Position numbers and translations under genes: made by a program
In this document: positions 60,301-62,424 of the stretch, piece by piece
Position numbering within the stretch: position 1 is the first letter of the stretch
How the letters are laid out: each line of letters opens with the position of its first letter
DNA from: Podarcis cretensis
Taxonomy: Eukaryota
Assembly (NCBI GenBank): GCA_951804945.1
Contig: OX638149.1
Span: forward strand, 106,640,001-106,704,000
Length of the DNA: 64,000 nt
Direction of reading: 5' to 3'
Notes under the pieces: model-generated
Told to the model about the DNA's origin: nothing
The model's input: only the letters and a program-made list of their open reading frames with translations
Databases searched by the model: none

Positions 60301-62424
60301 ATAGCCATCAACCTTCTCTCCCAATTCATAGGAAACACAGAGACAGAGCTCCCAGCAGTTTCAGAAAGATGTTAAAAACCTCCCCCACCATACCCAGTAA
60401 CAATTCAAAAGCATCTATTTCTGTTCTCAGCAAGTTGTCTCACGAACATATTATGAGTTCTTTAAGAGCACATTATAGATACAGGTGAACCGATTGTCAT
60501 TGTGTACTTGGACTTTCAAAAAGGTTTCAACAAGATACCTCGCCAAAGCTTTCTGAATAAGCTTAGATGTCATGGATTTAGAAGAGATCTCTTCTTGTGG
60601 ATCACATATTGTTTAGTAGCAGGAAGCAGAAAGTAGGAATAAATGGGCAGTTCTATGAATGGAAGGAGTCCCCTATGGGCTGATTTTGGGAGCTGTGCTT
60701 TCAAAACTAGTTTATTAGCATCCAGAGTAAATGATGAGTAGTGAGGTGGCCAAGTTGCTAAATTGCTGATAACATTAAATTGTTCAGGGTCATTAAAAAA
60801 GAGAAGTTGTGAGGAGCTCCAAAAGGACCTCTCCAAAGAAAGTAAACTTTTGGGAGCAAATAAAATGTATTTCATTCATGTACATGTTTCAGATGAGCTG
60901 ACATAAAAGTCAACCATGTTGTTGTATTTTATGCACATACACTCTTGTTATGCATACATGTGGATGTTTGGAAGGTATGTAAAGGAACCCAGGCATCCAA
61001 CGCACAGGGCAAGGTGCAATCTCGCCTTAGCATGGAAGGGAGAAAAATCATGGAAACTGGACAAAGTTTAATACATGAAATTATTAAATTGCCCAAGCAA
61101 CAAAAGTTCCTTGCTTACCTGAGTTCCTGGGGGGGCTAAACCTATGAAATATAAAATGATAAACCACATTTCAGCACAACCAGAACAATCCACACCTCCA
61201 CATTTGCTTTTAATGTGACTCAAAAAACTTTCAGACCACATGAAAACATGCATGTTAAATTTTACAAGTGACTTACAATTAACCATTTCAAGCAGACTGT
61301 ATTATGAATTTACATTCTGGCAATGAGCAGATAGTAAATGCAGCCAGACACTTCTTGTTATAAAAGCTTTCCCCCTGAAGCTCACTGAATATTTCAAGAA
61401 TCTCTCAGTTACTCCTGCCTATTCATTTTGAGCTTCAAATGAATAATTTTCTCAGAACAGGAAGGCCAGAATCTGAAATGAATGCTCAAAATCTAATGAT
61501 CCACAATGATGAAGATCTAACTGTCATGTTCACAGTTTTATGCAAGAGTCACTATATTCAACTCCAGCACGTTCAAGAGACAATACTCACATGCTAAAAC
61601 TGGGACCTGTAACAAAACATTGTAACATGCAATGCTCCTGTTCAGTGTTCCAGTCACAGACAGCCATGTCTCCCTACATGATATTCCCATTTGATTTCCC
61701 ATTTCCCATTCCTTCCCCATCAATCGGTCTGCATTACATGGCCTGTGGGTAAGCTCAGAGCTTATAAGGATATTTTTGGGGTTCCCCCGCCAAAAGTGTT
61801 ATTTTTTAACTTTTCTGTGCTTCTGTAAACTTCAGGGTTTCCAAGCCTAGTGAAATTTCCCTCTTGTGCATGTAAATGTTTTAGGTATGCAAGGATGCCA
61901 CACTCACTCTCTGGAAATAGAGGGAAAGATGCTGGTGAAATTCTCCATTGCTAAATGAACAAACTCTTTCAATTTCAATTCATAAATAAGTAAGTGTGAG
62001 GTGCATCATACTTCAATCCCAGATGAATCCTTCCGCAAAAAAATCCTACCTCCTTGTCAACAGAGTGGGAAGCACCTCAATGTTTTAGTTCATTGAGAAT
62101 TAGTAAATAGGAAGAAGGGATATTTTCAAATTCTCCTTACATGCAGGCATTTGTGCATGTTTGGCATGTGCACCATTTTCGGCACCACAAAGGGGCAAAA
62201 TGGGGGTGGAAGGCTCACTTACGGCCCGCTGACACGTTTGGTACCTCAGAATGGAACCCCCACATAAAAGAGGAGTTGCCTGTAACTGAATAAACTCTTA
62301 ATTTTAACCCACATTATTATTAACAAACTTCTTTTTAGTTTTGAACCTTTTCTGGTTAAATTGTTAAATAAATAGTGAATACTTTTTACATACCAATTTG
62401 AGAATCCATACTGTTTACTCCTGG
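42241..62424 (-). CDS. PRPF40A: Pre-mRNA-processing factor 40 homolog A, partial spliced gene (5' exons beyond window end)
   Basis: 23 phase-consistent exons encode two WW domains ([32 protein letters not shown]), tandem FF domains and a K/R/S-rich tail ending [30 protein letters not shown]. Confidence 0.97.
42808..42950. mobile_element. One-ended fragment of a related Tigger-like MITE
   Basis: Four TTCGTCTTGC subterminal repeats ending in gcaccactg-TA. Confidence 0.65.
43406..43647 (-). mobile_element. Same Tigger-like MITE family, inverted relative to 17031-17256
   Basis: Same TIRs and TA TSD; internal sequence is the reverse complement, with a small tandem duplication. Confidence 0.9.
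44355..44483 (-). CDS. PRPF40A: PRPF40A exon ([15 protein letters not shown]...KRPGKDS)
   Basis: 129 nt, AG/GT flanks. Confidence 0.95.
45176..45237 (-). CDS. PRPF40A: PRPF40A exon ([21 protein letters not shown])
   Basis: 62 nt, AG/GT flanks. Confidence 0.93.
45332..45428 (-). CDS. PRPF40A: PRPF40A exon ([32 protein letters not shown])
   Basis: 97 nt, AG/GT flanks; flanked by 88- and 94-nt introns. Confidence 0.93.
45517..45603 (-). CDS. PRPF40A: PRPF40A exon ([29 protein letters not shown])
   Basis: 87 nt, AG/GT flanks. Confidence 0.95.
46674..46769 (-). CDS. PRPF40A: PRPF40A exon ([32 protein letters not shown])
   Basis: 96 nt, AG/GT flanks. Confidence 0.95.
47618..47755 (-). CDS. PRPF40A: PRPF40A exon ([27 protein letters not shown]...AVWED)
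   Basis: 138 nt, AG/GT flanks. Confidence 0.95.
48436..48552 (-). CDS. PRPF40A: PRPF40A exon ([15 protein letters not shown]...NIKLAFNS)
   Basis: 117 nt, AG/GT flanks. Confidence 0.95.
48695..48786 (-). CDS. PRPF40A: PRPF40A exon ([31 protein letters not shown])
   Basis: 92 nt, AG/GT flanks. Confidence 0.95.
48934..49048 (-). CDS. PRPF40A: PRPF40A exon ([23 protein letters not shown]...MLGQP)
   Basis: 115 nt, AG/GT flanks. Confidence 0.95.
49553..49686 (-). CDS. PRPF40A: PRPF40A exon ([20 protein letters not shown]...KNRESFQ)
   Basis: 134 nt, AG/GT flanks. Confidence 0.95.
50885..51035 (-). CDS. PRPF40A: PRPF40A exon ([21 protein letters not shown]...AEDEELQ)
   Basis: 151 nt, AG/GT flanks. 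Confidence 0.95.
51439..51547 (-). CDS. PRPF40A: PRPF40A exon ([36 protein letters not shown])
   Basis: 109 nt, AG/GT flanks. Confidence 0.95.
52267..52431 (-). CDS. PRPF40A: PRPF40A exon ([16 protein letters not shown]...KMTSTTRY-K)
   Basis: 165 nt, AG/GT flanks. Confidence 0.95.
52854..52918 (-). CDS. PRPF40A: PRPF40A exon ([22 protein letters not shown])
   Basis: 65 nt, AG/GT flanks. Confidence 0.95.
53329..53587. mobile_element. Penelope-like element terminal fragment arranged as an inverted repeat (foldback)
   Basis: Arms 53371-53468 and 53490-53587 are near-perfect reverse complements with a 21-nt spacer; they contain the CTGAAGA...GAAA motif typical of Penelope terminal repeats. Confidence 0.8.
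53417..53454 (-). ncRNA. Minimal type-I hammerhead ribozyme motif (Penelope-type)
   Basis: - strand reads GUAU CUGAAGA A GUGUG CAUG CACAC GAAA GC UU AUAC: stem I, catalytic core, stem II, palindromic stem III. Confidence 0.7.
54364..54472 (-). CDS. PRPF40A: PRPF40A exon ([36 protein letters not shown]), FF1 start
   Basis: ccatag| ... AAG|gttttt, 109 nt. Confidence 0.93.
55929..56219 (-). CDS. PRPF40A: PRPF40A exon, low-complexity Ala/Pro/Val/Thr linker
   Basis: atgtag| ... GA|gtaagt, 291 nt, open frame [16 protein letters not shown]...EEAPKQESS. Confidence 0.9.
56804..57956 (+). mobile_element. 5'-truncated BovB (RTE clade) LINE with frameshifted RT
   Basis: [51 protein letters not shown]; 3' end ggggtcacgaagagtcggaca with CAA tail; 12-bp TSD atatgtttcacc at 56792-56803 and 57957-57968. 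Confidence 0.95.
58214..58238 (-). CDS. PRPF40A: PRPF40A 25-nt microexon (A-MIKAEEN-S)
   Basis: ttttgtgcag| ... AG|gtatgt; bridges phase 1 to phase 2. Confidence 0.9.
58865..58985 (-). CDS. PRPF40A: PRPF40A exon, WW domain 2
   Basis: [40 protein letters not shown], 121 nt. Confidence 0.96.
59358..59468 (-). CDS. PRPF40A: PRPF40A exon, WW domain 1
   Basis: [41 protein letters not shown] flanks. Confidence 0.96.
59566..59643 (-). CDS. PRPF40A: PRPF40A exon ([26 protein letters not shown])
   Basis: atttag| ... CAG|gtatca, 78 nt. Confidence 0.85.
60430..60840 (+). mobile_element. Old degraded CR1 LINE RT fragment
   Basis: gtgtacttggactttcaaaaaggtttcaacaag (VYLDFQK-F-K) and a degenerate KFADD-KLF region near 60755-60790. 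Confidence 0.7.
61119..61141 (-). CDS. PRPF40A: PRPF40A 23-nt microexon (G-LAPPGTQ)
   Basis: tttcatag| ... CAG|gtaagc; needed to bridge phase 1 to phase 0 between flanking exons. Confidence 0.85.
62223..62279 (-). CDS. Candidate 57-nt in-frame cassette exon of PRPF40A ([20 protein letters not shown])
   Basis: tttattcagttacag| ... |gtaagt, phase 1-1, no stop; fits between the 31-nt and 23-nt exons. Prediction only. Confidence 0.5.
62394..62424 (-). CDS. PRPF40A: PRPF40A 31-nt exon ([11 protein letters not shown])
   Basis: ttttccctacag| ... G|gtatgt on - strand; PGVNSMD is recognisable PRPF40A sequence. Confidence 0.88.

Follow-up and report, generated by a model that had tools for sequence, protein, structure and literature searches.

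A GC-rich block in an intron of lacertid PRPF40A as a candidate poison exon

Poison exons are a common self-limiting device of splicing-factor genes. Whether PRPF40A of the lizard Podarcis cretensis carries one is the question raised by a 64,000-nt stretch of contig OX638149.1 (positions 106,640,001–106,704,000, forward strand), called the window here. The host gene was identified from its sequence as lacertid PRPF40A on the minus strand, at the right end of the window. A first-pass annotation had placed a cassette exon with competing 5′ splice sites, yielding either an in-frame peptide or a poison form, in the 1252-nt intron between a 31-nt exon (62424–62394) and a 23-nt exon (61141–61119). 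Our analysis gives about an even chance that a 139-nt GC-rich block at 62279–62141 is a poison exon of low inclusion; we infer both its inclusion and the decay of the resulting mRNA from the DNA.

The annotated identity of the gene was borne out. The PRPF40A model comprised 23 exons from 62424 to 42241 on the minus strand, and 809 of its 812 residues were identical to a Podarcis lilfordi protein (P0032). A linker exon showed 98% identity to Podarcis proteins, and all 20 protein matches carried a PRPF40A-type name or its Pfam set (two WW domains and FF domains). The window covers the gene from the 31-nt exon onward, and the exon 5′ of it lies outside.

The acceptor, four donors with their exon lengths (35, 57, 139 and 230 nt), the 114-nt spacing after the 31-nt exon and a TGA at 62217–62215 were all found as first annotated. 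Features lacking from that annotation were a fifth donor giving a 61-nt form, a CAG 6 nt upstream of the acceptor, and two open frames created by exon skipping. The host intron holds five donor-like sites and two acceptors in total, with 114 nt before the 139-nt form and 999 nt after it. The frame table agreed with the earlier reading that the 57-nt form is in frame (31 + 57 + 23 nt leaves both WW domains in frame) and that the 35-, 139- and 230-nt forms hit a stop between the 31- and 23-nt exons. The further claim that any read-through past the 57-nt donor meets the TGA holds for the 139- and 230-nt forms, but the 61-nt form closes before it. When the 31-nt exon is skipped, the 139-nt form is in frame and stop-free over 46 codons, both 139 and 31 being 1 mod 3; skipping of the 23-nt exon instead puts the 35-nt form in frame.

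Nonsense-mediated decay (NMD) follows from a stop codon more than 50–55 nt before a downstream junction. In the 139-nt form, 74 nt separate the TGA from the exon's own donor and 22 junctions follow, so the NMD outcome annotated for this form agrees with the sequence. Read on from the 31-nt exon, this form meets the TGA, which makes it a likely poison exon, and its inclusion between the 31- and 23-nt exons is predicted to trigger NMD.

The base composition sets the 139-nt form apart. The GC content was 20–30% in the 114-nt intron, 40–60% over 62279 to 62140, and 20–35% immediately beyond. The rise at 62279 reached 45–60%, and by 62139 the value was back at 20%. The exon-minus-flank GC contrast was 0.24 for the 139-nt form, 0.09 for the 230-nt form, 0.01 for the 57-nt form and −0.11 for the 35-nt form. 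The contrast of 0.24 was the highest among 183 pseudo-exons, that is, acceptor–donor pairs of the same grade (21 sense, 27 antisense and, in the unannotated region 200–42000, 67 on one strand and 68 on the other). The next best value within PRPF40A introns was 0.11, and all 22 real PRPF40A exons were lower (maximum 0.19). A change-point fit blind to splice sites, run on the first 330 nt of the intron, returned 62282–62133 and 62282–62143. Only 4 of 789 overlapping intronic windows equalled the block in both GC and CpG count (4). The match of the GC block to the 139-nt boundaries exceeds chance (1/183, by a measure chosen post hoc). Among the forms, the 139-nt form alone stands out, and the 57-nt form has no composition boundary.

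Splice sites were scored with a weight matrix and by U1 pairing energy, with the 23 acceptors and 22 donors of PRPF40A itself as the reference. The candidate acceptor scored above 4 of the 23 real acceptors. The 139- and 230-nt donors each outscored 13 of the 22 real donors, followed by the 61-nt (5), 57-nt (4) and 35-nt (1) donors. U1 pairing energies were −9.3 kcal/mol for the 230-nt donor, −6.5 for the 57-nt donor, −5.7 for the 35-nt donor and −4.9 for the 139-nt donor.

Database proteins gave no trace of the block; these searches covered cluster representatives and up to 15 members of each, and rare isoforms may escape such sampling. No 5-mer from any frame of the block occurred in 48 database proteins (47 squamate PRPF40A and one unrelated cluster member). 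The 31- and 23-nt exons were joined directly in 38 of the 38 proteins that have both, including three of bird type; the other 22 of the 60 are without the pair. When 52 of 59 N-termini were aligned to 59701–64000, the sole contact with the block was a 4-residue antisense match. The 46-residue frame of the 139-nt form had no candidate among proteins of 82–2000 aa and no usable Atlas match. The representative search with the 57-nt frame gave one match, a repeat protein at 35% identity, which is a chance match. Short proteins of 30–485 aa gave six matches among 11 candidates, none with the candidate exon. Open frames of both kinds are expected by chance in shuffled sequence (139 nt, P = 0.15; 57 nt, P = 0.49). 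These results count against a coding cassette and are neutral between a poison exon and a pseudo-exon; the lack of any block frame is as expected of a non-coding exon.

Other searches of the DNA were also negative. Rfam gave one match (E 0.93), located outside the candidate, and the repeat check of the window found nothing at the block. The metagenome 19-mer scan gave three chance loci, at which similarity to the candidate ends at the pattern. None of 24 sequencing-run entries was listed as an RNA run holding the stretch. Five entries of unstated kind share 0.64–1.00 of 56 words and 14 entries guessed as RNA share 0.07–0.21, the other five being raw RNA outside the index; these figures speak neither for nor against an exon. 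If a 139-nt piece were present exactly, 109 of 521 31-mers (0.21) would be shared, the ceiling of the 14 RNA-guessed shares, but a complete stretch of about 95% identity would score no differently, which makes this a lead only. A hairpin gate had also been considered and was dropped, as the RNA fold of the block was unremarkable (z = +1.15; 171 of 200 shuffles as good).

Several observations weigh against a poison exon, and that fold is one of them. The acceptor has 8 pyrimidines in −20 to −4, compared with 9–15 in all 23 real acceptors, and a rival AG sits 6 nt upstream. The 57-nt donor pairs better with U1 than the 139-nt donor, and the weight matrix that ranks them otherwise rests on human frequencies. 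Pseudo-exons of the same grade, counted on both strands of 17,295 intronic bases, numbered 21 sense and 26 antisense; those with at least two donors numbered 5 and 3, and those with at least three numbered 2 (candidate included) and 5. The candidate splice sites alone are of chance grade, and since such pairs are as frequent antisense as sense, the run of splice sites is not evidence for an exon. The contrast measure was chosen once the GC rise had been noticed and is better at ranking forms than at proving an exon. The best-fit block over the whole 1252-nt intron was narrower (62263–62180), and the fifth best ended at 62143. The chance-grade sites and the weak acceptor would suit a pseudo-exon. 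Such a block would be a patch of intron richer in GC, or an old insertion, whose AG and GT arose by chance and which is not spliced at a meaningful rate. Its absence from the proteins, RNA families and papers searched suits this explanation equally well. We nevertheless consider it unlikely, though a serious alternative, because both edges of the GC block coincide with splice sites, and the 64-kb window holds no second copy of the block, with a single AT-rich 5-mer as the only duplication at its flanks.

A coding cassette is improbable. The 57-nt exon would add 19 residues before the WW domains, or the 139-nt exon would swap with the 31-nt exon as a mutually exclusive pair. Both versions preserve the frame, and the 57-nt donor is perfect at +1 to +6, but the direct joining of the flanking exons, the protein searches and the chance-level open frames all stand against it. 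The annotated 57-nt peptide in particular was found in none of the examined proteins. We regard as slightly less probable still a decoy exon, in which the block would bind U1 and U2AF, be rarely spliced and delay the removal of the intron between two microexons. Parra et al. (PMC6097662) report decoys from introns longer than 1 kb and regard several competing splice sites as a feature that may be critical; the host intron resembles these in length and in its number of sites. However, PRPF40A is not named in the main text of that paper, and among the papers listed by a literature search none dealt with a decoy in PRPF40A.

What the locus likely holds is the 139-nt poison form and not a peptide-versus-poison pair; of that earlier proposal the poison half has some support, from its exon-like composition and the position of its stop, and the peptide half has none. 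As the acceptor is poor, we propose that it would be used only when the exon is defined by U1 small nuclear ribonucleoprotein (snRNP) sitting on the donor-like sites that follow closely. The donor CAT/gtaagg would be the main exit of the poison exon. The inner donors (35, 57 and 61 nt) would mostly offer U1 further places to bind or be used as exits to a minor extent. The effect would be to restrain PRPF40A mRNA rather than to make a new peptide.

On the balance scale of Kenny et al. (PMC11842720), right-handed donors of +3 are the class promoted by LUC7L/LUC7L2. Because the donors of the candidate differ in balance (57 nt, +3; 35 nt, −2; 139 nt, 0), the locus could be read as a sensor of U1 make-up, specific to the lizard lineage or shared by reptiles more widely. 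LUC7L/LUC7L2 would favor the right-handed GCC/gtaagt (in-frame, productive) and abundant PRPF40A would favor CAT/gtaagg (poison), which would supply the missing return arm of a PRPF40A–LUC7L loop, placed between two microexons as small as those whose inclusion PRPF40A favors. This is the most speculative of the readings, and we think it very unlikely. The positions of all features are given in Table 1.

Table 1. Features of the candidate exon and its flanks, in positions of the window
Feature	Positions	Strand	Remarks
139-nt GC block, candidate poison exon, donor CAT/gtaagg	62141..62279	-	52.5% GC, 4 CpG; balance 0
Two CAG acceptors in tandem, starting the exon at 62285 or 62279	62280..62287	-	same frame; scores 1.9 (62279) vs −5.4 (62285)
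Branch-point-like pentamer nearest to acceptor	62319..62323	-	about 41 nt upstream; identified by eye
Donor GAG/gtacca, 35-nt form, exon end 62245	62239..62247	-	left-handed, balance −2; weakest, only 1/22 real donors lower
Donor GCC/gtaagt, 57-nt in-frame form, exon end 62223	62217..62225	-	right-handed, balance +3
Donor TAA/gtgagc, 61-nt form, exon end 62219	62213..62221	-	overlaps 57-nt donor; frameshift after 31-nt exon
Donor GAG/gtagga, 230-nt form, exon end 62050	62044..62052	-	beyond GC block; best U1 pairing of set
TGA in frame set by 31-nt exon	62215..62217	-	upstream of 139-nt donor
31-nt coding exon (phase 0 to 1), donor TTG/gtatgt	62394..62424	-	upstream partner; in squamate and bird proteins
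114-nt AT-rich intron	62280..62393	-	23% GC; pyrimidine tract weak, with four AGs in the roughly 21 nt before exon start
23-nt coding microexon (phase 1 to 0)	61119..61141	-	downstream partner of candidate
78-nt coding exon	59566..59643	-	precedes WW-domain exons; frame table and gene model

PRPF40A has three tiny coding exons of 31, 23 and 25 nt (the last at 58238–58214), exons of a size whose inclusion PRPF40A favors. Only as a pair do the first two preserve the frame, so skipping either of them alone would open a further route to NMD. In three protein models (P0004, P0023 and P0025) the 31-, 23- and 78-nt exons are missing together. Five full-length squamate isoforms (P0015, P0030, P0031, P0040 and P0045), three of them under several accessions, begin at an internal MPGMM methionine. 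Such starts fit an unproductive exon farther upstream, perhaps the counterpart of an 80-nt exon known in mouse. Two Podarcis muralis gene models (P0024 and P0026) begin in the intronic segments 60174–60082 and 59861–59823 (minus strand) at 100% identity, and these starts are likely prediction artefacts.

The flanking region differs between lineages. In two mammal-type proteins (P0056 and P0061), a short VAAG..SGA stretch replaces the 23- and 78-nt exons, as compared with 62394–59566 of the window. The sequences suggest that this region was rebuilt in the mammal lineage, and a lengthened 31-nt exon would account for VAAG..SGA. Any counterpart of the candidate in mammals would differ from it in phase. 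An 18-residue insert after the second WW domain of P0056 had no clear counterpart in the intron 58864–58239 on the minus strand (best 9 columns, E 0.033). Two bird-type proteins (P0053 and P0054) have 7–8 additional residues immediately before the counterpart of the 78-nt exon, which suggests an alternative splice site near it. Elsewhere in the gene, the constitutive exon at 54364 (minus strand) closes with a very weak donor, AAG/gttttt, the lowest of the 22. The intron after the 25-nt exon contains several of the background pseudo-exons at about 57990–56840, and by eye this part resembles a retroelement fragment. Runs of N, either assembly gaps or masking, lie at 4754–4905 and 34214–34385.

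NMD exons of this gene have already been catalogued in two mammals, mouse and human, which gives a poison exon here some prior weight. In mouse Prpf40a, an 80-nt cassette (GRCm39 chr2:53078460–53078539) stimulates NMD and is sensitive to cycloheximide, with percent spliced in (PSI) rising from 0.067 to 0.196 and a flank PhastCons of 0.938 (PMC11188260). The poison exon annotated in human PRPF40A measures about 318 nt (hg19 chr2:153549672–153549990) and was not significant in the test of that study (PMC10123112). The mouse cassette lies in the same gene and has the NMD-stimulating effect and low inclusion that are predicted for the candidate, but its 80 nt is unlike any candidate form (35, 57, 61, 139, 204 or 230 nt). 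The human exon lies in the 5′ part of the same gene, in a skipped intron of 1474 nt compared with 1252 nt here, but has about 1066 nt before it and 90 nt after it, the reverse of the layout around the candidate. We take the mouse exon to lie near the 5′ end of the gene, upstream of this window; the placement of both exons relative to the candidate's intron is likewise our assumption. Being of other sizes, they do not vouch for a 139-nt exon, which is a further point against it.

Knockdown of PRPF40A in mouse cells lowered the inclusion of small exons, and the Luc7l poison exon was skipped (PMC11648925). In human HL-60 cells, the knockdown changed a 54-nt in-frame exon of PRPF40A itself from PSI 0.795 to 0.587; this was the only PRPF40A row among the matches listed in the exon-skipping table (PMC11347146), which speaks slightly against regulation of the candidate. 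The literature search, which covered few subscription papers, gave no account of the candidate exon or of PRPF40A autoregulation. PRPF40A was not found in the supplements of PMC11632617, PMC11842720 and PMC8091538 or in file 13 of PMC11188260, files that are possibly partial. The available parts of PMC4402522, PMC13247117, PMC8078730, PMC8378409 and bioRxiv 2021.07.28.454226 contained no PRPF40A exon of this kind.

At present the 139-nt poison exon is one further probable case of the common pattern of poison exons in splicing-factor genes. If it is real, a factor that associates with U1 and governs the splicing of small exons would gain an unproductive exon, one that differs in size from both PRPF40A poison exons catalogued in mammals. 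Its donors, split by handedness, would make a compact minigene for possible LUC7 feedback on PRPF40A.

Among known systems, exon 7a of U1-70K (SNRNP70) is alike in its U1-associated gene, its unproductive acceptor beside a cluster of 5′ splice sites and its NMD outcome, which is predicted here (PMC3798272); clusters of three or more donors also occur by chance in the PRPF40A introns. Its weak acceptor is rescued by U1 bound just downstream, and the same arrangement may apply to the candidate by analogy. For exon 7a, dependence on U1C, binding of U1 and conservation as far as fish have been demonstrated, whereas the candidate is a prediction from sequence, and one of its donors would give an in-frame product. 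The decoy exons of SF3B1, OGT and ARGLU1 are also cryptic cassettes with several competing splice sites in introns longer than 1 kb, but they are highly conserved and promote intron retention (PMC6097662). The LUC7L poison exon and LUC7L2 AE2 (PMC11648925, PMC11842720) belong to U1-associated partners of PRPF40A and are small poison exons with a +3 right-handed donor like GCC/gtaagt. That donor ends the poison exon there, whereas in the candidate it would end the in-frame form and the poison donor has a balance of 0. The known direction of the loop is from PRPF40A to Luc7l (PMC11648925), and the candidate would differ from it in this respect.

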